A DNA stretch of 64,000 bases, from the sequence record OM632671.1. One strand, given 5' to 3'. Positions 8,973 to 47,081 of this stretch are shown here, piece after piece. This DNA is from Escherichia phage BEU50. A model generated the notes under the pieces. The model was given only the letters and a program-made list of their open reading frames with translations, did not search any database and had not been told where the DNA came from. Both the position numbers and the translations under genes were made by a program. Position 1 is the first letter of the stretch. Each line of letters begins with the position of its first letter.

Positions 8973-9554
8973 ATGGCTAGTTTAATTTTTACATATGCCG
9001 CTATGAACGCCGGTAAGTCTGCTTCATTACTTACTGCCGCACATAACTATAAAGAACGTGGCATGGGTGTATTAGTTCTTAAACCGGCTATTGATACTCG
9101 TGATTCAAAAGGTGAAATAGTCTCTCGTATTGGTATTCGTCAGGATGCCAATATAATTACAAAAGACATGGATATCTTTGAATTCTATAAATGGGCTGCA
9201 GCACAAAAGGATATTCACTGTGTATTTGTTGACGAAGCTCAGTTCTTAACTACTGAAAAGGTGTATCAACTTAGTCGTATTGTTGACGTATACAATGTGC
9301 CGGTAATGGCATATGGACTACGAACAGATTTTAAAGGTAATCTATTTGAAGGTTCTCAAGCATTAATGGCTATTGCCGATAAGCTTGTTGAACTTAAAGG
9401 TGTCTGTCATTGTGGTAAAAAGGCCACAATGGTAGCTAGAGTCACGGAAGACGGACTTCCAATTACAGATGGCAGTCAAATTGAAATTGGTGATACTGAT
9501 AGATATGTGTCATTATGCCGGAAGCATTGGAATGATTTGACAGGATTGTTATAA
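8973..9554 (+). CDS. tk: thymidine kinase
   Basis: NAGKSASLL P-loop, VDEAQFL, C-terminal Zn-ribbon cysteines. Confidence 0.95.
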   Translation: MASLIFTYAAMNAGKSASLLTAAHNYKERGMGVLVLKPAIDTRDSKGEIVSRIGIRQDANIITKDMDIFEFYKWAAAQKDIHCVFVDEAQFLTTEKVYQLSRIVDVYNVPVMAYGLRTDFKGNLFEGSQALMAIADKLVELKGVCHCGKKATMVARVTEDGLPITDGSQIEIGDTDRYVSLCRKHWNDLTGLL

Positions 9555-9557
9555 ATA
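9550..9557 (+). promoter_or_regulatory. late promoter core TATAAATA
   Basis: Exact TATAAATA octamer. Confidence 0.45.
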
Positions 9558-9581
9558 CTAATATCTAACCAAGAGGTATAT

Positions 9582-9794
9582 ATGCAGCAATTAAACGAAA
9601 GACAACTTCGTAATCTTACTGTAACCCAATTGGATGAAATCCGAAGAGAATTAGGACATTCTATTTCTCATTTAAACGAGGATATCCGTCAAACTGGTTC
9701 TAAAGCTGATTATACACGCAAGCGCAAGCTGGAAAAATACCTCACAGATGTTAAGGCCGTCCAAAGGCGAAAAATAAATACTGGCCAAAATTAA
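9582..9794 (+). CDS. hypothetical basic protein (70 aa)
   Basis: ATG after AAGAGG. Confidence 0.45.
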
Positions 9795-9806
9795 CAGGAG
9801 GCCTAT

Positions 9807-10109
9807 ATGGCCTTAAGAGCGATAGCTGTCATGGCGATGCTGGGGTTTTTTGCAGCAACAACTCCTATCGTTGGTACTGCATATGTTGACCCATATTTTG
9901 ATAACTTTATGGAATCAGGGATTAAAAACGTATATACTTTGTTTGAAATTCAAAATGTCGAGAATTCTGAAAAATTCTATAAGTATATGGCAAAGCATTA
10001 CAAAAATAGCCCCTGTGATGATGCATTTGAATGTCACGAACAAGGCATAAAAACTGCCAGACAATTTGCCGAGTTCATGAAAATAAAATTAGAGCCTACA
10101 TCTATCTAA
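9807..10109 (+). CDS. rI: lysis-inhibition regulator rI
   Basis: Signal-anchor N-terminus; DPxFDxFMESGI...KYM similarity to T4 RI; adjacent to tk. Confidence 0.8.
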   Translation: MALRAIAVMAMLGFFAATTPIVGTAYVDPYFDNFMESGIKNVYTLFEIQNVENSEKFYKYMAKHYKNSPCDDAFECHEQGIKTARQFAEFMKIKLEPTSI

Positions 10110-10115
10110 TTTACT

Positions 10116-10143
10116 AGCCCCTTCCGAAAGGTTGGGGCTTTTT
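10116..10143 (+). terminator. rho-independent terminator
   Basis: AGCCCC...GGGGCT hairpin followed by TTTTT. Confidence 0.6.
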
Positions 10144-10154
10144 GGCATCTATCA

Positions 10155-10205
10155 GTTTACTTCTCCTCAGGTTGTGTTATAGTAAACCTTACTTACTAGA
10201 GGAGA
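10155..10205 (+). promoter_or_regulatory. early promoter with imperfect inverted repeat
   Basis: GTTTAC 10155-10160, TATAGT 10178-10183. Confidence 0.45.
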
Positions 10206-10210
10206 ACGTT

Positions 10211-10390
10211 ATGACACGTAAAGAAAAAATTTCTAAGTTAATGTTTTTGATTGAAGAGTACGCTAATGCGGTATCTGATTGGGAAAATGCTCATGGTTGC
10301 GAAGATGGAGACATCGACATTAACAGAGCTATGAAAAAGATGGCTGATGCCCACACCGAATTGCAAATGTATGTTAACGAGATTATGTGA
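10211..10390 (+). CDS. hypothetical protein (59 aa)
   Basis: ATG 10211 after GAGGAGAA. Confidence 0.4.
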   Translation: MTRKEKISKLMFLIEEYANAVSDWENAHGCEDGDIDINRAMKKMADAHTELQMYVNEIM

Positions 10391-10397
10391 GGATATT

Positions 10398-10604
10398 ATG
10401 CTTTACGATTATACTGGAAAATCTGAAGACGGTGTACTTGAACTTTTACCTGAAAGCGCTGAAGATGATGATATGGTGGCGATGTTTTGTAAAAATGGCC
10501 CTGGGGATAAGGGATGGATTTATCTTCGTCAAGAAAATGACTTAATTGTTTTGGACCCTAAACAAGTTGAAGAACTTTATCAACATTTAAAACACAATCG
10601 GTAG
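10398..10604 (+). CDS. hypothetical acidic protein (68 aa)
   Basis: ATG 10398 after GAGGA. Confidence 0.4.
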   Translation: MLYDYTGKSEDGVLELLPESAEDDDMVAMFCKNGPGDKGWIYLRQENDLIVLDPKQVEELYQHLKHNR

Positions 10605-10642
10605 TTTACAACTTGGTAGGACTATGTTATAGTAGTCCTACC
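10604..10642 (+). promoter_or_regulatory. early promoter inside 9-bp perfect inverted repeat
   Basis: GTTTAC 10604-10609; GGTAGGACT (10615-10623) / AGTCCTACC (10634-10642). Confidence 0.5.
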
Positions 10643-10661
10643 AAAACAAATGGAGAACAAA

Positions 10662-10772
10662 ATGAAACTTTTGCTTATCGCTTATGTTGTAGTACAATAC
10701 AATTATCCGATGTTTACGTATAACATGGTAAATGGTGTAATGAATCTTATTGAAGCGAGTATGGTAAAATGA
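10662..10772 (+). CDS. small hydrophobic peptide (36 aa)
   Basis: ATG after GGAGAA; below ORF-track cutoff. Confidence 0.25.
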   Translation: MKLLLIAYVVVQYNYPMFTYNMVNGVMNLIEASMVK

Positions 10773-10869
10773 CCTGTGAAATGGATCTTATTTAATTTTT
10801 ATAGAAATCAGGTTGATGCTCGTCAGAATGATTTGGTGAATTTTGTTGAAACTTTAATTGGTGAATAAT

Positions 10870-11400
10870 ATGAAAACTGTAATTGAAACGACTGAGTTGT
10901 TTGGTGATTTATGTATCGAAAAACGTGGTTATGCGTACGTTCTGACGCAAGAAGATGATGTTGTTACTATTCTTCCTATGGAACTAGACAAGATTTTGAA
11001 ACTCAATCCACCAGGTCATGCATCTGTAATTAACATTGATGAAGACCTCCAAGTTCGTTTTTATCACGGACTTTATAGTGGGGTTAATATCGAAACCGAA
11101 GACGAATGTTTTTCTATTAATAATTGGAAAACATTTGTCACTAAGGTGAAAGAATTCATGGAATCTGAAACAGCCAAAAAGGCCAAACTTCAATGGGCTA
11201 AATGCCGTAATGCTTTTATTACAAATCAGGACCGCCCTGACTATACAACAGTCCTAGGCGTTAATCCTTCTTATGAAGATGGTGATGTCGTAGTTATTCG
11301 CCAAATTGATGACCTTCGTCAACATATCATTACATTAGACAAAGATGAAGCAGTTGCTCTTAAAGCTTATCTCGATTCTATTATCCCAACTTTGAAATAA
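10870..11400 (+). CDS. hypothetical protein (176 aa)
   Basis: ORF-track start 10858 is TTG; first ATG at 10870. Confidence 0.5.
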   Translation: MKTVIETTELFGDLCIEKRGYAYVLTQEDDVVTILPMELDKILKLNPPGHASVINIDEDLQVRFYHGLYSGVNIETEDECFSINNWKTFVTKVKEFMESETAKKAKLQWAKCRNAFITNQDRPDYTTVLGVNPSYEDGDVVVIRQIDDLRQHIITLDKDEAVALKAYLDSIIPTLK

Positions 11401-20790: not shown

Positions 20791-21262
20791 ATGTTATTAT
20801 CAGGCAAAATATAAAGAAGAAAAACAAAAATTTTATGATGCACAGAATGGTAAGTGTCCTATTTGCCACCGTGAATTAGACCCTGATGTTCAAGGTAACC
20901 ATCTTGACCACGACCACGAATTAAACGGGCCAAAAGCCGGTAGAGTTCGTGGATTACTCTGTAATCTGTGCAACGCAGCAGAAGGTCAAATGAAGCATAA
21001 GTTCAACCGTTCCGGTCTTAAAGGACGTGATGTTGACTACCTCGAATGGCTTGAAGCTCTTCTTGCTTATTTGAAACAAGATTATTCTTATAATAATATC
21101 CATCCTAATTTTGTTCCAGACAAAACTAAAGAGTTCTCAAGACTAGGTAAAGAGGAAATGATGGCTGAGATGCTTCAAAGAGGATTTGAATATAATGAAT
21201 CTGACACCAAAACACAGTTAATAGCTTCATTTAAGAAGCAACTTAGAAAGAGTTTAAAATGA
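20791..21262 (+). pseudogene. 49: endonuclease VII (gene 49) homologue with disrupted 5' reading frame
   Basis: ATG 20791 gives MLLSGKI then TAA at 20812; the homologous frame (YKEEKQKFYDAQNGKC...HLDHDHELNG...) runs 20807..21262 with no ATG before 20990. Confidence 0.6.
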
Positions 21263-23076
21263 CAATTGAAAAAGAAATTGAAGGATTGATTCATAAAACT
21301 AATAAAGACCTTTTAAACGAGAATGCTAATAAAGATTCTCGTGTTTTTCCAACTCAACGGGACCTTATGGCTGGTATTGTGTCTAAACACATTGCCAAAA
21401 ATATGGTCCCGTCTTTTATTATGAAAGCGCATGAAAGCGGAATTATCCATTTCCACGATATTGATTATTCCCCTGCTCTTCCATTTACTAATTGCTGTTT
21501 AGTAGATTTAAAAGGAATGCTTGAGAACGGGTTTAAGCTCGGTAATGCACAGATTGAAACTCCTAAATCAATCGGTGTTGCTACTGCAATTATGGCACAA
21601 ATTACTGCACAAGTTGCTTCACACCAGTATGGCGGAACGACTTTTGCTAATGTAGATAAAGTACTTTCTCCTTATGTTAAACGCACCTATGCAAAACATA
21701 TTGAGGATGCAGAAAAATGGCAAATCGCTGATGCGTTGAATTATGCTCAATCCAAAACAGAAAAAGATGTCTATGACGCATTCCAAGCTTATGAATATGA
21801 AGTAAACACTCTCTTTAGTTCAAACGGACAAACGCCTTTTGTAACAATTACATTTGGTACGGGAACTGACTGGACTGAACGAATGATTCAGAAAGCAATT
21901 CTGAAAAATCGTATTAAAGGTCTTGGTCGTGATGGGATAACTCCTATTTTCCCTAAGCTTGTTATGTTCATTGAAGAAGGTGTTAATCTTTATAAAGACG
22001 ATCCGAACTATGATATTAAGCAGCTTGCGTTAGAATGTGCAAGCAAAAGAATGTATCCTGACATTATTTCGGTTAAGAATAATAAAGCTATTACCGGTTC
22101 ATCTGTTCCTGTTTCTCCAATGGGTTGCCGTAGTTTCTTGAGTGTATGGAAAGATTCAACCGGTAATGAAATTCTTGATGGTCGCAATAATCTTGGTGTT
22201 GTAACATTGAATCTTCCTCGCATCGCGTTAGATTCTTATATTGGAACGCAATTTAACGAACAGAAATTTGTTGAATTATTCAATGAACGAATGGATTTAT
22301 GTTTTGAAGCTTTGATGTGTAGAATTAGTTCCTTAAAAGGAGTTAAAGCGACTGTTGCTCCTATTCTTTACCAAGAAGGTGCATTCGGGGTTCGTCTTAA
22401 ACCTGATGACGATATAATTGAGTTATTTAAAAATGGTAGAAGTTCAGTGTCCCTAGGATACATTGGTATTCACGAATTGAATATTCTTGTCGGTCGTGAT
22501 ATTGGACAAGAAATTTTAACTAAAATGAATGCTCATCTTAAACAGTGGACTGAAAGAACTGGATTTGCTTTTAGTTTATATTCGACTCCTGCTGAAAACC
22601 TTTGTTATCGCTTCTGTAAACTTGATACAGAAAAATATGGAAGTGTAAAAGATGTTACCGATAAAGGCTGGTACACTAACAGTTTCCACGTTTCAGTAGA
22701 AGAAAATATTACTCCGTTTGAAAAGATTTCTCGTGAAGCGCCATATCATTTCATTGCGACAGGTGGTCACATTTCTTATGTTGAACTTCCTGATATGAAA
22801 AATAACTTAAAGGGTCTTGAGGCCGTATGGGATTATGCTGCACAACATTTAGATTATTTTGGTGTTAATATGCCAGTAGATAAATGTTTTACATGCGGAA
22901 GTACCCATGAAATGACTCCTACTGAAAACGGATTTGTTTGTTCTATTTGTGGAGAAACTGATCCTAAAAAGATGAATACCATAAGAAGAACATGCGGCTA
23001 TCTTGGAACTCCTAGCGTTGTTCCATGGAATTTAGGTAAAATGAAAGAAATGGTAAAACGAGTAAAACATGCATAG
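21259..23076 (+). CDS. nrdD: anaerobic ribonucleoside-triphosphate reductase
   Basis: 605 aa; C-terminal Zn-ribbon cysteines and glycyl-radical motif RRTCGYLG. Confidence 0.95.
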   Translation: MTIEKEIEGLIHKTNKDLLNENANKDSRVFPTQRDLMAGIVSKHIAKNMVPSFIMKAHESGIIHFHDIDYSPALPFTNCCLVDLKGMLENGFKLGNAQIETPKSIGVATAIMAQITAQVASHQYGGTTFANVDKVLSPYVKRTYAKHIEDAEKWQIADALNYAQSKTEKDVYDAFQAYEYEVNTLFSSNGQTPFVTITFGTGTDWTERMIQKAILKNRIKGLGRDGITPIFPKLVMFIEEGVNLYKDDPNYDIKQLALECASKRMYPDIISVKNNKAITGSSVPVSPMGCRSFLSVWKDSTGNEILDGRNNLGVVTLNLPRIALDSYIGTQFNEQKFVELFNERMDLCFEALMCRISSLKGVKATVAPILYQEGAFGVRLKPDDDIIELFKNGRSSVSLGYIGIHELNILVGRDIGQEILTKMNAHLKQWTERTGFAFSLYSTPAENLCYRFCKLDTEKYGSVKDVTDKGWYTNSFHVSVEENITPFEKISREAPYHFIATGGHISYVELPDMKNNLKGLEAVWDYAAQHLDYFGVNMPVDKCFTCGSTHEMTPTENGFVCSICGETDPKKMNTIRRTCGYLGTPSVVPWNLGKMKEMVKRVKHA

Positions 23077-23088
23077 GGTTAAACACCA

Positions 23089-23721
23089 ATGAATTATGAC
23101 AGAATCTATTCAAATCTAGTTAATTCTGCTGAACACCCATCTAAGCCCCGTCAAACTAAAGCCGGGTATGAACTTCATCATATAATTCCAAGAAGCATGG
23201 GTGGTCCAGATGATTTAGACAACTTAGTATTTTTAACTTATAAGGCCCACTATACTGCTCACCATTTATTGGCTAAAATATATGGTGGAAAGATGTATGA
23301 TGCATATTGGATAATGAGTAATAGTAAGCATAGAAAAGTTACTTCTTCACAATACGCGTATGCAAAAGCTAAGAAATTTGAAAATCAGCGTGGCGCAAAA
23401 AGAAGCGATAAAACTAAGAAGCTAATGAGCATAGCTAGGTCTAAAGTAACTCTTCCTGATGATTTTGGAAAAAGGATATCTGATGGGCTAACAGGAAGAA
23501 CTTTGTCTACTAGTCATAAAGAGCATATCAAAAATAGTTCTAGAAATCGCTTTAACACCAAAACGGTTATTGGCTATTCACCAGACGGAAATACAATAGA
23601 ACTAACTGGAGCAACTGAAATAAGAAATGCAGGATTTTTTCATTCTGCTGTTTATAAATGTTGCAAAGGAATTCAATCTATTCATAAGGGATATACTTGG
23701 AAATATAAAGATGAATTATGA
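23089..23721 (+). CDS. HNH homing endonuclease
   Basis: MNYDRIY N-terminus; HHIIPRSMGGPDDLDNLVFLTYKAH motif; lies between nrdD and nrdG. Confidence 0.8.
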   Translation: MNYDRIYSNLVNSAEHPSKPRQTKAGYELHHIIPRSMGGPDDLDNLVFLTYKAHYTAHHLLAKIYGGKMYDAYWIMSNSKHRKVTSSQYAYAKAKKFENQRGAKRSDKTKKLMSIARSKVTLPDDFGKRISDGLTGRTLSTSHKEHIKNSSRNRFNTKTVIGYSPDGNTIELTGATEIRNAGFFHSAVYKCCKGIQSIHKGYTWKYKDEL

Positions 23722-24181
23722 TAGAATATACCCGTGCTGCTTTGTTAATGGTCCTGGATGCAGGGTCGTTCTCTTCGTCACTGGATGTTTGCATAAATGC
23801 GAAGGTTGTTATAATCGTAGTACTTGGAATGCTCGTAACGGACAGTTATTCACTATGAATACCGTTAAAGAACTTGCGTCCCATTTAAGCAAATCGTATA
23901 TCCAAGGCCTTACCTTAACCGGTGGTGACCCACTTTATCCACAGAACCGAGAAGAGATTTCAAATTTAGTTTCTTGGGTTAAAGCAAGATTTCCGGAGAA
24001 AGATATCTGGTTGTGGACAGGATATAAGTTTGAAGATATTAAACAGCTAGAAATGCTTAAATATGTTGATGTTATTATTGATGGGAAGTATGAGAAAAAT
24101 CTTCCGACTAAAAAGCTGTGGCGAGGATCAGATAATCAGCGACTTTGGTCAAATACCGATGGGGTGTGGAAACATGATTAA
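23711..24181 (+). CDS. nrdG: anaerobic ribonucleotide reductase activating protein (radical SAM)
   Basis: MNYDRIYPCCFVNGPGCR and CLHKCEGC (CxxxCxxC); ORF-track start 23627 is an upstream extension. Confidence 0.9.
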   Translation: MNYDRIYPCCFVNGPGCRVVLFVTGCLHKCEGCYNRSTWNARNGQLFTMNTVKELASHLSKSYIQGLTLTGGDPLYPQNREEISNLVSWVKARFPEKDIWLWTGYKFEDIKQLEMLKYVDVIIDGKYEKNLPTKKLWRGSDNQRLWSNTDGVWKHD

Positions 24182-39829: not shown

Positions 39830-40465
39830 ATGAAAACTACTCCTATTACTATCGCTATTGACGCAATCATAAAACAAGCTTCTTCTTTGGCCGCTATGGC
39901 CAAAGTAATTAGTCAAAACCCTGCTCGTTATAATGCTATTCTAGAAACTCTTCGACGCCCGGGACTTAGTAATTATGAAAGCCGAGTAATTATTACAGGT
40001 GTTGGTAAGAATGCTAATATTGCAACTAAAGCTTCTGAGACATTTGCTTCACTCGGTATCCCGAGTATGTACTTGAACACTGGGCATTATTCTCACGGTG
40101 ATGCAGGATTCATTGCGCCTAATGATGTGTTGATTCATATTAGTCGTTCTGGTAAAACTGAAGAAATGATAGGCGTGGCTAAGCATCTTAAAATGATTCG
40201 ACCGAACGTCAAACAGATTCTGTTGCATTGTAACCCAGACATTCCACAAGAAAATGAAGCCCTTTTTGATTACTCTTTCTGTACAGGCATCGCAGTAGAG
40301 GTTGATGAGAATTCTCTGGCTCCGACTATGTCCACTACATTGTTGTTAGCGCTTATCGATACGTTTGCTATCAACCTTTCGTCTGAACGTGGATTTACCT
40401 CTAATGACTTCCTTAAGTTCCACCCTGGTGGTGCACTAGGTGCCATGTTACGAGGCGAACAATGA
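39830..40465 (+). CDS. SIS-domain sugar-phosphate isomerase, KdsD/GutQ-like arabinose-5-phosphate isomerase without CBS domains
   Basis: ITGVGKNANIATKASETFASLGIPS, HGDAGFIAPNDVLIHISRSGKTEE, LAPTMSTT...FHPGGALG parallel the KdsD SIS-domain motifs. Confidence 0.75.
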   Translation: MKTTPITIAIDAIIKQASSLAAMAKVISQNPARYNAILETLRRPGLSNYESRVIITGVGKNANIATKASETFASLGIPSMYLNTGHYSHGDAGFIAPNDVLIHISRSGKTEEMIGVAKHLKMIRPNVKQILLHCNPDIPQENEALFDYSFCTGIAVEVDENSLAPTMSTTLLLALIDTFAINLSSERGFTSNDFLKFHPGGALGAMLRGEQ

Positions 40466-40646: not shown

Positions 40647-42332
40647 ATGAAAAAAGCTGTTATTCTTGGTGCTGGACTGGCAACTCGTTTATATCCAATT
40701 ACTCACCATATTCCTAAGGTGCTTGTTAACTATAAACAAGACACTATTCTGAGCAATTTGTATACAATTTATTCTGACCTAGGCGCAGATGAAATTATTG
40801 TAGTAGTTCATTCAAAATTTGCTGAAACTGTTCGAGCTTATTGTGAGCAAGAAGGGTTCAATGTGACTATTCGTACAGTTGATGAAGCGTATGGTTCTGC
40901 TTATGCTCTTGCTAAATTACACAAAGATTTAGACGGCCATAATGTAATTGTTAACTGGTGTGATATTATTCCGGATTTTGGTTCATGGTCTTGGAATGTT
41001 AACGCAATCTATGTTAAGGGTGACGAATGTCGATATAATTTCGACGGTGAAAATATCACTAACGTAGGTTCAACAGGTGGTAATGTTGTAGGAATTTATC
41101 AGTTCAAAGACTGGGAATTCTATATGGGTTCTACTGATGAGGAAATTCATGAATACTGCAAAGGACGTGATTTCGTAGAATTCCTTTACGGCAGCGCATT
41201 CAATAAATCAGAGCTTATGAATCTAATTGATTTAGGTGATATGCCTAAACTTGAAAAAGCTCATGAAGTTCGTGAACTTAATCGTAGTTTTAATGCAGTT
41301 GAAATTGGTGAAGAAACTGTAACTAAATTCGCATTAACCGAACAGGGCCGAGCTCTTCAGAAAGATGAGATTTCGTGGTATTTGAAAGTGAAATCAGATT
41401 CAGTCCCTCAGTTAGTTTCTGTTAATGAAAATAACTTTGAAATGGAACGCATTAAAGGTAAGCCGGCATTTGAATATATTAAATCCAAATCAAGTCTTGC
41501 TCGTCCACAAATTGTTGATGCAATTTTAGATGCACTGAAATTCAGCACAGACACTTATTTTGTAAGTCCTGAAACTGTTCGTCGTGATTTCACTAAAGAA
41601 TTCTATACGAAAGTTATTGATCGTTGTGAAAGCATTCAACCATTGATTGATTCATTTGGTAAAATCACACATGTGAACTACACTAAGATTGGACGTCTGA
41701 AGCCAATGCTGAAACAAGCTTTAGAACACCTTATTCGTTATCATAACCGTTCTCAGGGACAGTACTCTGTTATTCATGGTGACCCGAACTTCAGTAATAC
41801 TATGATTACTGATAACGGCGAAGTCAAATTTATCGACCCTCGTGGATATTTTGGCGAAACCAAGATTTACGGGCCAAAATTGTACGATGAAGCTAAAGTG
41901 CTTTACGCTGTTTCAGGTTATGATGAATTCAATGCTAATCCGACCTGGGGACAGTTTACTATTGATGAAACAACTTGTAATGTGACTATTAACATCAATC
42001 CATTAGTTTACAAATATGGAAAGATGAGTTCGTTTAACGAGTATCATCATTTGGCAGTGGCAATTATCTGGATTGCATTAGGTGGTTATTTCAAGAATAA
42101 TCCACTTAAAGCGGTAGCCGCATATTATAAAGGTATGGAACTTCTGACTAAGCAATTACGTAACATGGGCCGTGTACTTCAGGACGGCTCTATTAGTTAT
42201 GACGTAGCAGAACCTGTAACGGCTACTCTGATTACAAAAAATCCTGGTAAATGGGTACTAACTGATAAAGAAACTGGTGTTTCCTATCGTCCAATCGGTG
42301 GCGATATCACTCATCAATGGGAACGAATTTGA
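40647..42332 (+). CDS. bifunctional sugar-1-phosphate nucleotidyltransferase / sugar kinase
   Basis: N-terminal ILGAGLATRLYPIT NTP-transferase motif; C-terminal VIHGDPNFSNTMITDNGEVKFIDPRGYFG kinase catalytic loop. Confidence 0.7.
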   Translation: MKKAVILGAGLATRLYPITHHIPKVLVNYKQDTILSNLYTIYSDLGADEIIVVVHSKFAETVRAYCEQEGFNVTIRTVDEAYGSAYALAKLHKDLDGHNVIVNWCDIIPDFGSWSWNVNAIYVKGDECRYNFDGENITNVGSTGGNVVGIYQFKDWEFYMGSTDEEIHEYCKGRDFVEFLYGSAFNKSELMNLIDLGDMPKLEKAHEVRELNRSFNAVEIGEETVTKFALTEQGRALQKDEISWYLKVKSDSVPQLVSVNENNFEMERIKGKPAFEYIKSKSSLARPQIVDAILDALKFSTDTYFVSPETVRRDFTKEFYTKVIDRCESIQPLIDSFGKITHVNYTKIGRLKPMLKQALEHLIRYHNRSQGQYSVIHGDPNFSNTMITDNGEVKFIDPRGYFGETKIYGPKLYDEAKVLYAVSGYDEFNANPTWGQFTIDETTCNVTININPLVYKYGKMSSFNEYHHLAVAIIWIALGGYFKNNPLKAVAAYYKGMELLTKQLRNMGRVLQDGSISYDVAEPVTATLITKNPGKWVLTDKETGVSYRPIGGDITHQWERI

Positions 42333-43078
42333 TACATTATCTCTACAAAACTACTAATCTTATAAACGGTAAAGTTTATTTAGGAATGCACTCGGCTGAA
42401 GAAGCCGAGCCTTTAGATTTATATAAAGGTTCTGGTAAATTATATAAAAAGGCTGAAAGGAAATACGGTAAGGAAAATTTTCTTAAAGAAATCATTTCCT
42501 ACCATAGCTCAAGAGAAGAATTAAAAATAGCTGAAAAGGCTCTAATAACATTAGACATAGTTAAAGACCCGAATTATTACAATCTTAAAACTGGTGGCGA
42601 AGGTGGTTCTGACGGGTTATCCCAAAGGTCCAAGGATAAAATTTCTAAGGCAAATAAAGGACGTTTAGTTGGTGATAAAAACCCAAGATGGGGTAAAACT
42701 TTGTCAGCTGAATCTATAGCTAGGGGTAAAGAAAAGCACAGGAGGTATGGTAAACCTGCATTACATGGTCTAAAGATTAATGTAGATGGCAAATATTATG
42801 AATCCTGTCGGGAAGCGGCTAAAGATTTGGGTATATCTTCTGCCACGATTCAAAAGAGAGTAAAATCGCCTAAATATCTTAATTATCGATATCAGGACGA
42901 AAGCAAAAATGCTCACAAGTCTCAAAAATTTGTTAAAATAAACGAAAATTACTATGAATCTCTTAGGATAGCTGAAAAGAAAACGGGTATTCCTAGAAAG
43001 CGTATAGCTGATAATATTAAAAATTCTATTGAAGGATATTGCTATGAAACCATTACATCTTTGCGTGGACGTCGATGA
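42317..43078 (+). CDS. GIY-YIG homing endonuclease (Seg-like)
   Basis: IHYLYKTTNLINGKVYLGMH GIY-YIG motif; C-terminal NUMOD/HTH-like region; overlaps both neighbours. Confidence 0.75.
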   Translation: MGTNLIHYLYKTTNLINGKVYLGMHSAEEAEPLDLYKGSGKLYKKAERKYGKENFLKEIISYHSSREELKIAEKALITLDIVKDPNYYNLKTGGEGGSDGLSQRSKDKISKANKGRLVGDKNPRWGKTLSAESIARGKEKHRRYGKPALHGLKINVDGKYYESCREAAKDLGISSATIQKRVKSPKYLNYRYQDESKNAHKSQKFVKINENYYESLRIAEKKTGIPRKRIADNIKNSIEGYCYETITSLRGRR

Positions 43079-43418
43079 TTGTATAACAGAGTGGAATAAC
43101 AATCGTGATTACGTGAACTTCAAACCAGACGTCGAAATGGTGTCTGCCATTAATGCCCTGTATGAGGCAGGGCATACCATAACGCTTTACACTGCTCGCG
43201 GTATGAAGTCAGTAGGTCCTGGTCGTATAGCAATTGACATTCTCCCAAGTCTGATTCAGAACTTGGCAAACATTGGCTTGAAGTACCATAATTTGCTAAC
43301 ACATAAACCAGTATATGATTGGATTATCGACGACAAAGCTATGCGTCCTGACGAATTCAAAGCTCTTATGAATAAAGGCGAATTCGAAACATTTAAATCA
43401 TATAAACCGAATCTATAA
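43044..43418 (+). CDS. HAD-superfamily phosphatase
   Basis: DVDDCIT motif I, downstream T, K and IIDD motifs; ORF-track start 43029 is TTG. Confidence 0.6.
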   Translation: MKPLHLCVDVDDCITEWNNNRDYVNFKPDVEMVSAINALYEAGHTITLYTARGMKSVGPGRIAIDILPSLIQNLANIGLKYHNLLTHKPVYDWIIDDKAMRPDEFKALMNKGEFETFKSYKPNL

Positions 43419-43464: not shown

Positions 43465-44637
43465 ATGCAAAAAAAAATGAATACTTTTAAAATCGGAACG
43501 AATTTTGATTTAGCTCTTCTTGATAAAATCGTAGAGCTCAATAAAACTTATCCTAATAGCTTGATAAACGAAGTATACGGCTCTACAAGAGAAATGGCTT
43601 TTGTAGCAGCCAGACCTGATTTTAGGCTTCCTGACGTTGACAAAAAGATGTTAGAAGATTACGTTAAACGTTGTAACGAATTAGGTATTTGCTTTAACTA
43701 TACACTCAACACGATAAATCCTGGTTCAAAAAGAGAACTAGTTGAGTGGAAGAAGAAAGCTATTCAGGATTATGTTCAGTATCTTTGGTCAATAGGCGTA
43801 TGGCGTATTACTATCGCTAACCCTGTTGTTATGGAAATTGTTCGTGAAGTCAATAAAGACATTGAGATTGAAGTTTCAACAATTCTACATGTCGATGCTG
43901 TAACTCAAATCAAATACTTGCATGACCAATATAATATCAAAAAGGTCTGCTGTGGAATTCATAAGAACCGTTCAGTTTCTTTCCTGAAGCGTGCAGCAGA
44001 GTTTTGCAATAAGAACAATATAATATTTGAAGTTCTTGTAAATGAGTTCTGTTCTAATGCTGGTAAAGGGTATACAACACATTGTAGCTATCGTGACTCT
44101 TGCTATATTTTCCATAGTACTGATGTTACAGCTGATGATGCTAAATCCTTAAACGGATATCCAATGCAGCACTGTATTAAAGCTCGTGATACAGACCCAT
44201 TTAACTGGTTGAGAACTCGTTTTGTTCGTCCTCAAGATTTGAAACTTTATAATGATATTGGTATCACTCAATTCAAAGTTTCAGGACGTACAGGTAGCAC
44301 AGACTACATTTTGAAAGTTCTTGAAGCATACGCTTCTGAAAAGTTTGAAGGTAATTTGTTAGAACTGTGGAAGCCTTTAGAGACTATTTTCACTCTTGAA
44401 AACGAAACTGAGTTTTCACATACGGTAAATATTGAAACCTCTTTGTTAGATGGCTTTTTAGAAAAAAGGTGGTTCAGACATCCAGATTTCGATTGTGCTA
44501 ATGAAATCTGCGGGACGACGTGTACATATTGTGAAAGATATTATAAACGTCAGTTATCTAAAAATGGGTTATCAGAAAATTCTATATCTATTATTGATAT
44601 AACTAACTCTGACGACGCTTTGAGGTACCCGGAATGA
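43465..44637 (+). CDS. hypothetical Cys-rich protein, possible Fe-S enzyme (390 aa)
   Basis: C-terminal CANEICGTTCTYC (CxxxCxxC within it) plus CSYRDSCYIF; family not assignable by eye. Confidence 0.5.
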   Translation: MQKKMNTFKIGTNFDLALLDKIVELNKTYPNSLINEVYGSTREMAFVAARPDFRLPDVDKKMLEDYVKRCNELGICFNYTLNTINPGSKRELVEWKKKAIQDYVQYLWSIGVWRITIANPVVMEIVREVNKDIEIEVSTILHVDAVTQIKYLHDQYNIKKVCCGIHKNRSVSFLKRAAEFCNKNNIIFEVLVNEFCSNAGKGYTTHCSYRDSCYIFHSTDVTADDAKSLNGYPMQHCIKARDTDPFNWLRTRFVRPQDLKLYNDIGITQFKVSGRTGSTDYILKVLEAYASEKFEGNLLELWKPLETIFTLENETEFSHTVNIETSLLDGFLEKRWFRHPDFDCANEICGTTCTYCERYYKRQLSKNGLSENSISIIDITNSDDALRYPE

Positions 44638-44873
44638 TTTCTAGAAAAACTTTTAATTATAAACTTAATGAAGAGATTTTGACTATGAAACTGAACACCA
44701 ACGAACAAATTCTTAAAAAGGCCCTTATGGGCCTGTTTGAAACCAAAGCGGCTAAAGTGATTAAAGAACCTATTCAATTGGAATACTATGCTGATGCATT
44801 TCTTCATAGTGTTCTTGGAAGTATCGATGCTGAAGCTTTACGTTATATCAACATTGCCAAGAAATTCAAATAA
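44634..44873 (+). CDS. hypothetical protein (79 aa)
   Basis: ATGA overlap. Confidence 0.45.
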   Translation: MISRKTFNYKLNEEILTMKLNTNEQILKKALMGLFETKAAKVIKEPIQLEYYADAFLHSVLGSIDAEALRYINIAKKFK

Positions 44874-44915: not shown

Positions 44916-45632
44916 ATGGGAAAACATAACACAATGAAATATATCAAAGCCGCAGATTTTCAAGCCGCATTTAAAGCAGTCAATCGTGAAATTTTAGAAA
45001 ACCCGGAATTCGTAACTGATTCTCGTATTGGGCGTTGTAATGAAATTGGGTCTATGACAGTAGTTGTTGACACTCCATCATCATTCAAAATGACCGACCC
45101 ACGTATTAACCGCATCTCTTATGAATATGCCGAAGACTTCTGGAAGTTTATGATTTCTGGTGGTACCAACGCAGAAGAAGCGTTTAAGGCATATCCTAAT
45201 GTCGCTAAATTTATTTCTAAACCAAAATCAGATGTTTTGCCGGCGAACTTCAACACTTTCTATGGTCCTCGCATTGCGGCCCAATTACCAGCTCTTCTAA
45301 AAGAACTTAAAGAGAAGCCTAACTCTCGAAGAGTTGTGTTCCAAATTCTAGAAAGTTCTGATCAGGCTTTGCTTGATTCAGACGAAACGCTTGAATATCC
45401 ATGTACTGACTCAGTGACTTATTATATTCGTGATGGTAAGCTTTATACCCACTGTCATATGCGTTCTCAGAACTGTGCTGTTGTTATGCAGTTGGATTTT
45501 TATCTCCAAGGAAAATTACTTCATTATATCGCTAACGAATGTGGTGTAGAAGTTGGTGATTATACTCATACCATGGTAAGTGCCCATGTGTTTGAACGTG
45601 ATTTTGATTATGTTAAAGGATTCCTTGACTAA
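44916..45632 (+). CDS. 42: thymidylate-synthase-family deoxypyrimidylate hydroxymethylase (gene 42-like, divergent)
   Basis: PNSRRVVFQI, CTDSVTYYIRDGKLYTHCHMRSQN and SAHVFERDF parallel T4 gp42/ThyA catalytic regions, with low overall similarity to T4 gp42 as I recall it. Confidence 0.65.
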   Translation: MGKHNTMKYIKAADFQAAFKAVNREILENPEFVTDSRIGRCNEIGSMTVVVDTPSSFKMTDPRINRISYEYAEDFWKFMISGGTNAEEAFKAYPNVAKFISKPKSDVLPANFNTFYGPRIAAQLPALLKELKEKPNSRRVVFQILESSDQALLDSDETLEYPCTDSVTYYIRDGKLYTHCHMRSQNCAVVMQLDFYLQGKLLHYIANECGVEVGDYTHTMVSAHVFERDFDYVKGFLD

Positions 45633-46531
45633 TGGCTATTTTCCGCGTACCTATTTTGAGTATGCGGTCTTATGAAACTGGACAGTATGCCATCCTTAAG
45701 GATGGCAACTTCCAACTTCATTTGCACCGTGCTAATCCAGGTGATGTGATTACATATCCACGTAATGCATCCGATATTAAAGAATGTGAACGTCTTTTCC
45801 CAGAATTTAAGTTTGTTCCATTATGGTATAAAGATAACGCGTATAACACTCGTAAATATTTCTGGTCTGAAAATGAATTTGTGGTTGATTCATTAATCGC
45901 TTATTATGATTGTGATTTTCTAATCACAGATATCACTGGATACGACGGCGCTTTTGATGTAGAATTCAATTTCAATATCACTGCAGACCCTAATAAACCA
46001 CGTTTTTATATTGACGAATTCTTAAAAACCGACATGTTGTCGGTTAATCGTTCAATCCAAACAACTGTGTTGAATAAACGTCAAAAGGAAGTGCTGGTTA
46101 ACGCAGGTGCAGATGGTAATAAGATTATCATAACCCAGAAAGTTATACGTCCTTCCATCATGCAGCGTCTTGTAGGTGATTTAGCTCCTATTCATCTAGA
46201 TGGTATTTTTCATCCATTTCGAATTAGTGACCCGTGCTATCGGTTTGAACAAGTGGTTGAATGTGCAATTCAATTAGGCCAACCGCTTTATATAACCGAT
46301 CCAAATAATAGCTTCGACAGAAATAAGTATCCTGAAGAAGCGCTGATTCGAATTTTTAAACCAACTAAAACTGAGTACTATCAAATTCTTAAAGGACGTC
46401 CGAAGATTCAATATTTCGAAAATCCTGAAGAAGTATTCCATCCAGGTCTTGGTGAGTTCATCTACTTTAATGCTTTAATTTCTTCACCGTATAATATACC
46501 TAAATACGAAGATGTCGTAATCGAGGAATAA
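45632..46531 (+). CDS. hypothetical protein in the beta-glucosyltransferase position (299 aa); candidate DNA sugar transferase
   Basis: No recognisable motif; placement between gene 42 and uvsX only. Confidence 0.45.
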   Translation: MAIFRVPILSMRSYETGQYAILKDGNFQLHLHRANPGDVITYPRNASDIKECERLFPEFKFVPLWYKDNAYNTRKYFWSENEFVVDSLIAYYDCDFLITDITGYDGAFDVEFNFNITADPNKPRFYIDEFLKTDMLSVNRSIQTTVLNKRQKEVLVNAGADGNKIIITQKVIRPSIMQRLVGDLAPIHLDGIFHPFRISDPCYRFEQVVECAIQLGQPLYITDPNNSFDRNKYPEEALIRIFKPTKTEYYQILKGRPKIQYFENPEEVFHPGLGEFIYFNALISSPYNIPKYEDVVIEE

Positions 46532-46532
46532 A

Positions 46533-47081
46533 ATGGCTAAAATTATTTTAGTAGATGGCCCGGATAATGCTGGTAAAACAACTTTCATTAATGACATAAT
46601 GGAAATTAGTGAAAGATATGTAAAGATTGATTTCCCTAAACGAACAGTTGATGGACGTTTCGATGTTAAGTCTCGAAATGAAGTTGGCTGTTTCGAAACG
46701 ATGTTGAATTATTTAGACCCTACTAAGATTTATCTGTTAGACCGTGGATATATTAGTAACTGGGTTTACGGACGTATTCGACAAGATGCGGACTCTGTTC
46801 TTGACGTTTATGAACAGGATTATGTTCGTCTTTGCCAAAACCATGATGTGTTCACAATTATTTTAACACGTAACGAAATGACTGAAAGTTTTGAAGACGA
46901 CCTTATTACTTTGTCTTCATTCGGTTTTAATACAGTCATTTCACATTTTGAAGAGTTTGCAATTCATAACAAAATCCAAACGTATCAATTACTTAATCAT
47001 GATGGTGCTAACAAAGTTATAGGATTTAATGCAAGCGAACGTAATGTTTTGATTACAGAAATCATCAAATGGGCTCGTTAA
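46533..47081 (+). CDS. P-loop nucleotide kinase (thymidylate-kinase-like)
   Basis: Walker A VDGPDNAGKTT and DRGY (DRY-like) motif. Confidence 0.6.
   Translation: MAKIILVDGPDNAGKTTFINDIMEISERYVKIDFPKRTVDGRFDVKSRNEVGCFETMLNYLDPTKIYLLDRGYISNWVYGRIRQDADSVLDVYEQDYVRLCQNHDVFTIILTRNEMTESFEDDLITLSSFGFNTVISHFEEFAIHNKIQTYQLLNHDGANKVIGFNASERNVLITEIIKWAR

Follow-up and report, generated by a model that had tools for sequence, protein, structure and literature searches.

What does a cysteine-rich protein contribute to a phage gene cluster for DNA arabinosylation, when the route from Ru5P through Araf5P, Araf1,5P2 and Araf1P to UDP-Araf is completed by other genes without it? The protein, gp50, is encoded in a stretch of 64,000 nucleotides from Escherichia phage BEU50 (OM632671.1), referred to here as the window. 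RB69-type DNA carries arabinosylated 5-hydroxycytosine (5hoC), and RB69 replaces its cytosine completely and pre-replicatively; gp48, the only known phage hydroxylase, binds flavin and takes its oxygen atom from 18O2 (Lee et al. 2026, PMC13326640). The window contains the following genes of the cluster, together with an anaerobic ribonucleotide reductase and its activase.

21259..23076, + strand: NrdD, anaerobic ribonucleotide reductase (Pfam NRDD, E = 1e-171)
23627..24181, + strand: NrdG, radical-SAM activase of NrdD (Pfam Fer4_12, E = 3e-50; Radical_SAM)
39830..40465, + strand: arabinose-5-phosphate isomerase (A5PI; SIS domain; RB69 gp55; Pfam, PHROG)
40647..42332, + strand: bifunctional sugar-1-kinase/nucleotidyltransferase (RB69 gp52:53, AfhE-like)
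42317..43078, + strand: GIY-YIG/NUMOD homing endonuclease (Pfam), inserted in the cluster and outside the pathway
43029..43418, + strand: HAD-type phosphatase (RB69 gp51/AfhF-like; Araf-1,5-P2 to Araf-1-P; PHROG)
43465..44637, + strand: putative Fe-S protein of the U32 family, ATG-to-stop ORF of 390 aa (RB69ORF050c/gp50 orthologue)
44634..44873, + strand: ORF049c, an ORFan of 79 aa with only close homologues, often truncated; its start overlaps the U32 stop
44916..45632, + strand: thymidylate synthase (TS) homologue, 5-hydroxy-dCMP synthase (RB69 gp48 orthologue; PF00303; PMC13326640)
45632..46531, + strand: DNA arabinosyltransferase 1 (RB69 gp46:47 orthologue; PHROG 3891)
46533..47081, + strand: thymidylate-kinase-like nucleotide kinase (RB69 gp45 orthologue; PHROG 761)

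Since both NrdD and NrdG are present, the phage should replicate anaerobically, where gp48 cannot work. Phages with 5hoC destroy dCTP and need 5hodCTP for replication.

The gene and its setting

A preliminary description of this DNA had noted a cysteine-rich protein of 390 aa encoded at 43465-44637, within a sugar-pathway cluster. These points held: the ORF runs from ATG to stop at exactly these coordinates, the reverse strand over the same interval is full of stops, and the gene is flanked by arabinose-activation genes on one side and, on the other, by those for the 5hodCMP synthase, a glycosyltransferase and a kinase. The protein has 13 cysteines (3.3%), against 1.36% pooled over the 79 window ORFs of at least 100 aa, among which it ranked fifth. 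Homologues and most database annotations begin at a second ATG (43477; MNTFK...), which may be the true start. The gene is 99.5% identical to RB69ORF050c at the nucleotide level, the source phage being a Mosigvirus, and its product belongs to PHROG 5757. Labels currently attached to gp50 include 'putative enzyme involved in UDP-arabinose biosynthesis', 'sugar or heterocycle reductase' and 'epimerase'.

Membership of the peptidase U32 family

The protein is a TIM barrel of the peptidase U32 family. Residues 98-290 matched PF01136 (Peptidase_U32; E = 7.5e-11, 42.2 bits against a cut-off of 22.4), and the AF2 model was a TIM barrel with pLDDT 93.5 and pTM 0.92. A Foldseek comparison, proposed in the preliminary description, gave as its best PDB match the U32 protein Mk0906 (5d88; E = 1.7e-7, TM 0.71 normalised to the target), likewise a TIM barrel. 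This match was found by fold comparison only; a sequence search of the PDB returned nothing even at E <= 1. The model otherwise showed generic TIM-barrel likeness, at low TM-scores, to flavin or sugar enzymes, and a fold search of BFVD returned only its own orthologue and generic TIM barrels.

Among the four E. coli paralogues, RlhA was the closest by profile (hhalign 80%, E = 1.3e-5, 202 columns). The score against the UbiU equivalog NF047963 (NCBIfam) was 18.4 bits, far under the cut-off of 440. A motif within the core domain, K271-x2-G274-R275, aligned with the K-I-E-G-R of UbiU, TrhP and RlhA, and both K271 and R275 were conserved in 124 of 124 distant family representatives. The C-terminal extension domains of TrhP and RlhA had no counterpart in gp50, either in the alignment or in Pfam, where PF01136 was the sole domain. 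The positions of the core domain and of two predicted metal sites are given below.

43756..44334, + strand: Peptidase_U32 core domain, residues 98-290 (PF01136), including K271-x2-G274-R275
44050..44175, + strand: predicted metal site A, C196, C207, C213 and C237 (C-x10-C-x5-C-x23-C), from alignment and conservation
44494..44532, + strand: predicted metal site B, C-terminal cluster of four cysteines (C344, C349, C353 and C356), from conservation

Conserved cysteines and predicted metal sites

Two cysteine motifs picked out previously, a CxxxCxxC arrangement and a CSYRDSC segment, were both real and conserved. The first lies in CANEICGTTCTYC, i.e., C344-x4-C349-x3-C353-x2-C356, while the second is C207-x5-C213. 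When the composition of gp50 was shuffled, CxxxCxxC appeared in 209 of 20000 sequences (~1%) and four closely spaced cysteines in ~1.6%; the pattern alone was therefore just mildly unusual. The weight of the cysteine evidence lies in conservation. Across 98 homologues (46-87% identity), C162, C196, C207, C213, C237, C344, C349, C353 and C356 were invariant, while C70, C76, C163 and C181 were not conserved. Among the 124 distant representatives (23-47% identity), conservation approached 100% for C196, C207 and C237 and was ~95% for the four C-terminal residues; at position 213, 73 had Cys and 50 had His, so that 123 of 124 had one or the other.

The ligands would thus divide into two four-ligand metal sites. 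C207, C213 and C237 aligned with C169, C176 and C193 of UbiU, which are experimentally proven cluster ligands, and with the CX6C of RlhA and TrhP, a cysteine pair that is essential in both proteins. On this alignment, site A is predicted to be the catalytic [4Fe-4S] site of the U32 fold. It matched the canonical CX6CX15CX3/4C at three positions, reading CX5C-X23-C without the CX3/4C, and its fourth conserved cysteine was C196, upstream; UbiV and UbiU likewise deviate from the canonical form. TrhP E162 and RlhA E161 are essential glutamates upstream of the cysteine pair. Two gp50 residues precede C207, namely E189 (at least 90% conserved) and E194 (invariant among close homologues), and either could be the equivalent, the assignment being ambiguous because of an 8-residue insertion. 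Site B may hold a second Fe-S cluster or Zn. As judged from the sequence, the suggestion that the cysteine spacing resembles that of Fe-S-binding TIM-barrel enzymes appears sound, since gp50 has the barrel of a family that binds [4Fe-4S]. Of the description of gp50 as an Fe-S or radical enzyme, the Fe-S part is favoured by the alignment of CSYRDSC with validated ligands and by the conserved C-terminal Cys4, so that Fe-S binding is probable; the radical part was not upheld, for reasons given below.

Linkage to chorismate mutase in T4-like phages

Chorismate mutase (CM) makes prephenate. A CM gene adjoined the U32 gene in 18 of 22 T4-like U32 loci, in every sampled genus except Mosigvirus and Marfavirus. 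In Serratia phage LC53, the CM_2 gene (E = 1.7e-11) begins within the U32 stop codon, and in Shewanella phage Thanatos-1, where the cluster is rearranged, U32 and CM had been relocated as a pair. A phage CM was found by tblastn in 54 phage records and lay within the cluster of U32 and TS homologue in all matches listed. Across T4-like genera, U32 was the best-conserved gene of the cluster (79-89% aa). A phage Tn-seq preprint reported no essentiality data for the LC53 genes.

No CM of its own was found in the window's Mosigvirus; the link therefore applies to this phage by orthology with other genera, and its gp50, if prephenate-dependent, would have to rely on host PheA/TyrA activity. The position of ORF049c is where other T4-like genera carry CM, and this ORF was considered as a diverged CM. 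The idea was rejected: ORF049c had no BLASTP similarity to the LC53 CM and no match to an HMM of phage CMs, nor any Pfam or NCBIfam match at E <= 10. Yersinia, Pectobacterium and Serratia-92A1 phages carry ORF049c alongside a CM, which is a further reason not to regard it as one.

Absence of U32 was also patterned. Acinetobacter phages (57 records with an AfhE homologue) and Dhakaviruses had the A5PI, AfhE, HAD, TS, glycosyltransferase (GT) and kinase genes, and lacked both U32 and CM. Acinetobacter is an aerobe, and its phages are reported to contain arabinosylated 5hoC. Dhakaviruses (the JS98 group) are also E. coli phages, and since they do without U32, it is not universally required even in enteric hosts. 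Cultured phages that bear U32 had only facultative anaerobes as hosts (Enterobacterales, Shewanella).

Loci outside the T4-like phages

Homologues were also found outside the T4-like phages, in uncultivated phages and MAG contigs of anaerobes. The genome matches came from Erysipelotrichales, Oscillospiraceae, Romboutsia, Gastranaerophilaceae, Tannerella, Phocaeicola and similar. DAHP synthase-CM fusions or stand-alone CMs adjoined U32 in 11 of 33 IMG/VR loci, as did CM-matching genes in 4 of 11 genome loci. Where DAHP_synth_1 occurred as a gene of its own (L004, L032), the product may be a KDO8P synthase instead of a DAHP synthase. Glycosyltransferases of the gp46:47 type (PHROG 3891) lay within 6 kb of U32 in 25 of 38 non-T4 loci, and A5PI/AfhE homologues occurred together with U32 in about 10-17 of them. 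Further neighbours included PHROG-761 kinases, dCMP deaminase, dUTPase, a TET-associated glycosyltransferase and UDP-galactopyranose mutase. Enzymes of mononucleotides were found near U32 in many lineages (thymidylate-kinase-like, dCMP deaminase, dUTPase, NT5C, dNK), and some homologues sat with nucleotide-metabolism genes only (dCMP deaminase, kinase or dUTPase). In one locus (L007), U32 was beside GLF/TAGT, that is, non-arabinose sugar genes.

A TS homologue of the gp48 type was found within up to 10 kb of U32 in none of the 38 loci (phmmer, with gp48 and E. coli ThyA as queries); the single TS-family match, in L035, was ThyA-like. In these contigs, a hydroxylase of the TS type may still be encoded farther than 10 kb from U32.

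Proposed function

All U32 proteins characterised so far (RlhA, TrhP and UbiU/V) are required for hydroxylations that depend on prephenate but not on O2 and that take place at aromatic carbons, C5 of cytidine among them, in the formation of ho5C, ho5U and ubiquinone; in vitro hydroxylation has so far been achieved with no U32 protein. By analogy, gp50 is probably, on balance, an O2-independent, prephenate-dependent pyrimidine C5-hydroxylase, serving as a 5-hydroxy-dC(MP) synthase. The linkage to CM and the chemistry of the U32 family are the reasons for favouring base hydroxylation over sugar chemistry. The proposed product fits because the phage DNA has arabinosylated 5hoC while gp48 needs O2. 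We infer the use of prephenate, the substrate, the product and the role of site B from these parallels.

The reaction would proceed as follows. A [4Fe-4S] cluster at site A would act with prephenate as the oxygen-atom donor, as in UbiU/V, TrhP and RlhA, and prephenate would be released as phenylpyruvate and CO2. A deoxycytidine nucleotide, most probably dCMP, would thereby become 5-hydroxy-dCMP, to be phosphorylated by the phage dNMP kinase(s) and incorporated by the polymerase, after which the 5hoC would be arabinosylated on DNA by the gp46:47/gp3 transferases. Site B would hold a second cluster that passes the two substrate electrons to a host acceptor. The protein would thus be the anaerobic counterpart of gp48, the O2/FMN-dependent, TS-like 5hodCMP synthase, and most likely would let the phage make sugar-coated DNA where its hosts live without oxygen, e.g., in the gut. 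The broader claim that gp50 founds a viral U32 subfamily, which hydroxylates a free deoxynucleotide with prephenate as stoichiometric oxygen donor, we hold at even odds. A literature survey, whose coverage stopped short of He et al. 2026 and Mahler et al. 2025, turned up nothing that connects U32, prephenate or chorismate mutase to the modification of phage DNA.

Alternative explanations

The hydroxylase might instead act on cytosine in DNA, or on dCTP/dCDP, rather than dCMP, in one version as a post-replicative 'proof-reading' of residual cytosine. Both characterised pyrimidine-directed U32 proteins do act on polynucleotides (tRNA, rRNA), and the TET-associated glycosyltransferase, found in L007, belongs to a family that elsewhere partners DNA-level hydroxylases. 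With PF01136 the only domain detected, gp50 nevertheless lacks an extra nucleic-acid-binding domain; its neighbours in many lineages are enzymes of mononucleotides, and the cytosine replacement of RB69 is already complete before replication (PMC13326640). This substrate was judged unlikely. Somewhat more doubtful is a sugar or sugar-nucleotide enzyme, by which gp50 would reduce, epimerise or ring-contract arabinose-5-P or UDP-arabinose before transfer to DNA; the preliminary description had similarly envisaged epimerisation, dehydration or rearrangement of the sugar. The placement of the gene among arabinose genes, the presence of A5PI/AfhE homologues at some of the non-T4 loci and the low-scoring barrel likeness to flavin or sugar enzymes are consistent with it. 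Against these stand the complete route from Ru5P to UDP-Araf, the arabinose clusters that work without U32 in Acinetobacter phages and Dhakaviruses, and the homologues located beside other sugar genes or beside just dCMP deaminase, kinase or dUTPase. The adjacent CM and DAHP synthase genes would be left unexplained, and the surveyed literature contains no U32 member with activity on sugars. A function connected with the sugar nucleotide is thus unlikely, and the sugar chemistry first suggested probably does not apply.

A TrhP/RlhA-like hydroxylase of host or phage tRNA (ho5U34) or rRNA, tuning translation during infection, would suit the U32 family, the proximity of RlhA by profile and the fact that prephenate is also a cofactor of the tRNA and rRNA pathways. 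It was considered very improbable, given that gp50 homologues lie constantly within DNA-modification clusters of unrelated phage lineages, that the C-terminal domains of TrhP and RlhA are missing, and that E. coli has TrhP and RlhA of its own. The chances are slimmer still for a radical-SAM-like enzyme with a SAM-cleaving cluster at the C-terminal CxxxCxYC. C349-x3-C353-x-Y-C356 fits the CX3CXΦC spacing, but four cysteines are conserved and not the expected three, their spacing differs among family members (Cx3-4Cx2-3Cx2C), Tyr355 is conserved in 77 of 124 representatives, and the motif lies in the C-terminal tail, whereas that of radical SAM proteins follows β1 of a partial TIM barrel. Nor did gp50 match PF04055 (Radical_SAM), though NrdG of the same window was detected. 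The radical-SAM reading of CxxxCxxC was rejected on these grounds, and gp50 is probably not a radical enzyme. A protease, the 'collagenase-like peptidase U32' of most GenBank records, has only the historical family name in its favour and is scarcely credible: the U32 functions characterised in the surveyed literature are all hydroxylations, and neither the Fe-S-type cysteine sites nor the genomic context has any connection with proteolysis.

Implications

If gp50 is a prephenate-dependent hydroxylase, it would close a gap in the 5hoC pathway of phages that have an anaerobic ribonucleotide reductase and yet a sole known hydroxylase that depends on O2. Prephenate-dependent hydroxylation would then reach beyond RNA and quinones to DNA precursors and viruses, and phage DNA hypermodification would have a second, oxygen-independent entry. 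It would be a backup in enteric T4-like phages, and many uncultivated phages whose hosts are strict anaerobes would have no other. Phage CM and DAHP synthase would become auxiliary metabolic genes that feed DNA-base hydroxylation. Anaerobes of gut and sediment would be hosts to many uncultivated phages that are predicted to make glycosylated 5-hydroxypyrimidine DNA with no TS-like enzyme involved, which bears on the interpretation of metagenomes, on restriction/CRISPR evasion and on sequencing artefacts. Being small and soluble and taking a mononucleotide as its substrate, gp50 would give the first workable system in which to reconstitute U32/prephenate chemistry in vitro and study its mechanism. 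For phage therapy, Mosigvirus-type DNA modification, and hence defence evasion, may vary with oxygen and with the aromatic amino-acid metabolism of the host.

Comparison with known systems

RlhA (YdcP), the U32-family 5-hydroxycytidine-2501 synthase of E. coli 23S rRNA, shares with gp50 the U32 core and the aligned Glu, Cys-x5/6-Cys and KxxGR motifs. By analogy the chemistry would also be shared, i.e., a prephenate- and Fe-S-dependent, O2-independent formation of 5-hydroxy-cytosine on a building block of nucleic acid. RlhA, in contrast, is a protein of 653 aa that has large C-terminal domains and the ribosome as its substrate, while gp50 has 390 aa without such domains and a deoxynucleotide as its proposed substrate; gp50 also has CX5C, a fourth ligand at C196 in place of CX3C, and the additional C-terminal Cys4 site. 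Mk0906, the only U32 structure matched (a match also given by Lee et al., PMC13326640), resembles gp50 in fold but is a minimal barrel of 247 aa and unknown function, with 11% identity and nothing to match the C-terminal region.

The proposed pairing of gp50 with gp48 has parallels in TrhP versus TrhO, UbiU/V versus UbiH/F/I and, in the same phage, NrdD/G versus NrdA/B. In tRNA, ho5U34 arises by two routes, one through TrhP (YegQ), which depends on prephenate, and one through TrhO, which depends on O2. As proposed for the phage, two non-homologous hydroxylases, one using O2 and one prephenate, would serve a single pyrimidine C5-OH, and the U32 core is shared; the differences are the tRNA substrate and the O2-dependent partner, which is a rhodanese there and a flavin-binding TS homologue in the phage. 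UbiU-UbiV, an O2-independent ubiquinone hydroxylase with prephenate as oxygen donor, is the anaerobic alternative to flavin mono-oxygenases. UbiU has the fold and three aligned ligands of gp50, but UbiU-UbiV is a heterodimer with one cluster per subunit, a lipid-binding partner (UbiT) and a lipid substrate, whereas gp50 has two Cys4 sites in one chain, which would do the work of the two-cluster heterodimer. RB69 gp48, encoded two genes downstream, DLP3 gp80 and the HY126 homologue would have the same product as gp50, 5-hydroxy-dCMP; gp48 is flavin- and O2-dependent and experimentally proven, while gp50 has an unrelated fold and a proposed function. The analogy with NrdD/NrdG and NrdA/NrdB is conceptual: although reaction and family differ from those of gp50, T4-like phages there have two enzymes for one step in making DNA precursors, the first aerobic and the second strictly anaerobic.

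The U32 gene and its conserved cysteines

The source phage is a T4-like Mosigvirus, in which the U32 protein, gp50, is encoded as follows:

43465–44637, + strand, U32 gene (390 aa), orthologue of RB69ORF050c (RB69p050)

This ORF had 99.5% nucleotide identity to RB69ORF050c and was found in 176 phage records by megablast. Cysteine accounted for 13 of its 390 residues (3.3%, vs 1.4% in the other ORFs of the window), and the two cysteine segments noted in the preliminary description were both present, as C344-x4-C349-x3-C353-x2-C356 and C207-x5-C213. These motifs are significant because they are conserved, composition alone giving CxxxCxxC in approximately 1% of shuffles. Nine cysteines (162, 196, 207, 213, 237, 344, 349, 353 and 356) were invariant in 98 homologues of 46–87% identity. 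Among 124 representatives of 23–47% identity, C196, C207 and C237 were conserved at ~100% and C344/C349/C353/C356 at ~95%, while position 213 was Cys in 73 and His in 50. Conservation across both sets therefore identified two four-ligand sites, site A (C196/C207/C213/C237) and site B (C344/C349/C353/C356). In Escherichia phage OLB35, another Mosigvirus, the annotated U32 gene is in two parts, of 269 and 108 aa (BFVD hits A0A3G3MCS7 and A0A3G3MCT7); whether from a frameshift or a sequencing error, the split detaches the barrel from the Cys4 site at the C-terminus.

The Pfam profile Peptidase_U32 spanned residues 98–290 (E = 7.5e-11, above the curated cut-off). An AlphaFold2 model from 99 input sequences was confident (pLDDT 93.5, pTM 0.92), and the Foldseek-type comparison that had been proposed returned a U32 TIM barrel, Mk0906 (5d88), as its top PDB match; all remaining matches were generic TIM barrels, and a PDB sequence search with gp50 gave no match. 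Alignment with the four U32 paralogues from the E. coli K-12 genome placed C207 and C213 on the Cys-x6-Cys of the family and C237 on its third Cys. These residues correspond to C169, C176 and C193 of UbiU, whose ligation of a [4Fe-4S] cluster was proven by mutagenesis (Pelosi et al.), and C207/C213 also match the Cys pairs essential for TrhP (C170/C177) and RlhA (C169/C176). The Cys motif of gp50 is a variant, lacking the usual fourth U32 cysteine (CX3/4C), for which the universally conserved C196 would be the obvious substitute. The sequence K271-x2-G274-R275 was 100% conserved and aligned with the KIEGR strand of the paralogues. Through its U32 fold and the cysteines aligned to the UbiU ligands, gp50 is predicted to be an Fe-S protein, as the preliminary description had proposed; site B may hold another cluster with a full set of ligands, or possibly Zn instead.

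gp50 is orthologous to none of the four E. coli paralogues. Its score for the UbiU equivalog was 18 bits (cut-off 440), and neither Pfam nor alignment showed a counterpart of the C-terminal TrhP and RlhA domains. The nearest paralogue by profile comparison was RlhA, a 5-hydroxycytidine synthase (80% probability over 202 columns). In a set of 1.84 billion representatives, 491 clusters (50% identity) belonged to the gp50 family at E ≤ 1e-30.

Relationship to the arabinose cluster

RB69 DNA contains mono- and di-arabinosylated 5-hydroxycytosine (Lee et al., NAR 2026, PMC13326640). According to the same study, the thymidylate synthase (TS) homologue gp48 (here 44916–45632) binds flavin and makes 5hodCMP with oxygen from 18O2, while the route from Ru5P to UDP-arabinofuranose is covered on paper by gp55 (A5PI), gp52:53 (AfhE-like) and gp51 (HAD phosphatase). 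RB69p050 appears there in Table 1 only, as 'Sugar or heterocycle reductase', on the basis of the 5d88 match. Databases label the U32 gene as peptidase, protease or 'putative enzyme involved in UDP-arabinose biosynthesis', and another paper seems to place it among sugar-modifying genes. Nothing in the openly readable papers searched tied U32, prephenate or chorismate mutase (CM) to phage DNA modification. Other features of the cluster were:

40647–42332, AfhE-like gene, intact single ORF (561 aa), split in the RB69 reference (ORF052c/053c)
42317–43078, + strand, GIY-YIG/NUMOD homing endonuclease (I-TevI/SegE-like), between the AfhE-like gene and the HAD phosphatase, overlapping both
45632–46531, arabinosyltransferase, intact single ORF (299 aa), split in the RB69 reference (ORF046c/047c)

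The intact ORFs agree with the attribution of the RB69 splits to sequencing errors (PMC13326640). Phages LC53 and phiR1-RT had a different endonuclease at a slightly shifted place, and some genera had none.

The preliminary description raised the possibility of an Fe-S or radical enzyme that epimerises, dehydrates or rearranges the sugar, and the CxxxCxYC spacing does resemble radical-SAM in the window gp50 sequence alone. Against this, site B has four conserved cysteines, its spacing drifts within the family (Cx3-4Cx2-3Cx2C), it lies in the C-terminal tail, and the Radical_SAM profile did not match gp50, though the NrdG activase in the window was readily detected. The arabinose cluster also exists without U32, and the radical and sugar part of the proposal is probably wrong. 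Of 373 phage records with the AfhE homologue, 57 were from Acinetobacter phages and others from E. coli Dhakaviruses; U32 occurred in 221, all at ≥80% identity and with hosts only among Enterobacterales or Shewanella. Acinetobacter phage Maestro and JS98 had contiguous A5PI, AfhE, HAD, TS, glycosyltransferase and kinase genes without U32 or CM, and the Dhakaviruses had no U32 at all.

Comparison loci around U32 homologues (L-numbers) from outside the T4-like phages showed that the constant companions of U32 were a gp46:47-type glycosyltransferase and nucleotide enzymes, not arabinose genes. The glycosyltransferase was present in 25 of 38 such loci, and the full A5PI/AfhE/KdsC-like-HAD set in about 10. 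The nucleotide enzymes were a thymidylate-kinase-like protein (PHROG-761, shared with gp45), dCMP deaminase, dUTPase/dCTP deaminase, NT5C and dNK. In L007, U32 was flanked by gp46:47-type and TET-associated glycosyltransferases, the former matching the same PHROG (3891) as that of the window; a UDP-galactopyranose mutase close by indicates a different sugar, and TET was not found in this neighbourhood. No gp48-type TS homologue occurred in the 38 loci, within the ≤10 kb per side that was fetched and visible around metagenomic U32 genes; the sole TS-family gene (L035) was ThyA-like (E = 8e-41 to ThyA vs 6e-5 to gp48). On the simplest reading, U32 is the hydroxylase component of a kinase-glycosyltransferase-hydroxylase module in non-T4 phages, and was added on top of the TS-type hydroxylase in enteric T4-like phages.

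Directly upstream of U32 in 16 non-T4 loci (L041–L063, cluster 'c2'; e.g., L044:9468–9953) was a KdsC-like HAD phosphatase of ~160–215 aa with the motif DCDGV(L/M)TDG, probably a functional counterpart of AfhF/gp51. At L002:15227–16360 and L068:13242–14267, ~5 kb away from the first U32 gene, lay another that was strongly diverged (22% identity to gp50). It was surrounded by genes for a radical-SAM/SPASM protein, deoxynucleoside kinase, NT5C nucleotidase, PnuC-like transporter and nucleoside 2-deoxyribosyltransferase, and may belong to a separate module for nucleoside modification or salvage in Bacillota.

Chorismate mutase and DAHP synthase beside U32

Every characterised U32 protein works in O2-independent, prephenate-requiring hydroxylation. 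Prephenate was identified as the oxygen donor for ubiquinone hydroxylation by 18O labelling, and a pheA tyrA mutant regains activity when given only the CM domain of PheA. The start of a genuine CM gene (CM_2, E = 1.7e-11) overlapped the U32 stop codon in Serratia phage LC53. By tblastn, 54 phage records had this CM type, every one of them from a T4-like phage infecting Enterobacterales or Shewanella, and it lay within the U32/TS-homologue cluster in every case among the matches listed. With a small HMM, CM adjoined U32 in 18 of 22 fetched T4-like loci; the four without were Mosigvirus loci (the window and L018) and the Marfavirus-type L019 (two records, one locus type). The cluster of Shewanella phage Thanatos-1 is rearranged (AfhE-HAD-TS-GT-kinase-U32-CM), and its U32 and CM stay together with overlapping stop and start. 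Mosigviruses have no CM of their own, and the CM slot of other genera is occupied here by:

44634–44873, + strand, ORF049c, 79-aa ORFan overlapping the U32 stop codon

ORF049c is unrelated to CM and was ruled out as one; it is confined to Mosigvirus, Tegunavirus and a few others, often shortened to 47–58 aa.

U32 was the most conserved cluster protein across T4-like genera (79–89% identity, L011–L015 and L019–L033 vs the window; AfhE 42–73%, glycosyltransferase 44–72%, kinase 38–73%, TS homologue 70–83%), which points either to very strong constraint or to a U32(-CM) module that has recently spread laterally.

Among 33 IMG/VR loci (homologues at 40–58% identity), 11 had a CM domain less than ~2 kb from U32, in several cases as the C-terminal domain of DAHP synthase, for example in an uncultivated phage:

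L058:11085–12200, DAHP synthase-CM fusion beside U32 (DAHP_synth_1 2e-32, CM_2 1e-9)

The same fusion lay by U32 in L044, L046, L047, L049 and L071–L073, and the arrangement also occurred in contigs binned with Gastranaerophilaceae and Romboutsia. Stand-alone DAHP_synth_1 genes (L004, L032) might be KDO8P synthases. No account of shikimate-pathway genes in phages was found in the literature searched. First-committed-step and prephenate-forming shikimate enzymes beside U32 are expected if prephenate is consumed stoichiometrically; at ~6x10^4 cytosines per genome and a burst of 100–200, a rough estimate is ~10^7 hydroxylations per infected cell.

Oxygen and the proposed function

The hosts of cultured U32-carrying phages were all facultative anaerobes, and phages of strictly aerobic Acinetobacter hosts were without U32. 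The family occurred in only 11 of 185,579 species-representative genomes, nearly all strict anaerobes living in gut or sediment (Erysipelotrichales, Oscillospiraceae, Romboutsia, Gastranaerophilaceae, Tannerella and Phocaeicola), and the same phage-like modules recurred in them. Genes for NrdD (E = 1e-171) and for the activase NrdG are present in the window, which is therefore from a phage built for dNTP synthesis without oxygen:

21259–24181, + strand, nrdD (605 aa) and nrdG (184 aa), with an HNH homing-endonuclease ORF (23089–23721) between, partly overlapping

Since gp48 requires O2 and T4-type phages eliminate dCTP, another hydroxylase would logically be needed for anaerobic replication. 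The dCTPase, gp28, is listed in Lee et al. (PMC13326640).

gp50 is accordingly put forward, with somewhat better than even confidence, as a candidate O2-independent, prephenate-dependent 5-hydroxy-deoxycytidylate synthase. The pairs TrhP/TrhO, UbiUV/UbiHFI and NrdDG/NrdAB are exact parallels to the proposed pairing of gp50 with gp48. It is the kinase and deaminase neighbours alone that suggest the substrate level (dCMP, dCTP or DNA), and no U32 family member has to date been reconstituted as a hydroxylase in vitro. If correct, the U32 hydroxylases would extend to a further class of substrate and, newly, to viruses.

A dCMP deaminase gene stood directly before U32 in L001 (a 466-kb contig; 9447–11086, the two genes overlapping) and L005/L006 (7504–9083). 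These loci were jumbo-phage-like, with a split PolIIIα and with UDG-fold and thymidylate-kinase-like genes nearby, and U32 may there act on, or produce, a uracil nucleotide instead of a cytosine one.
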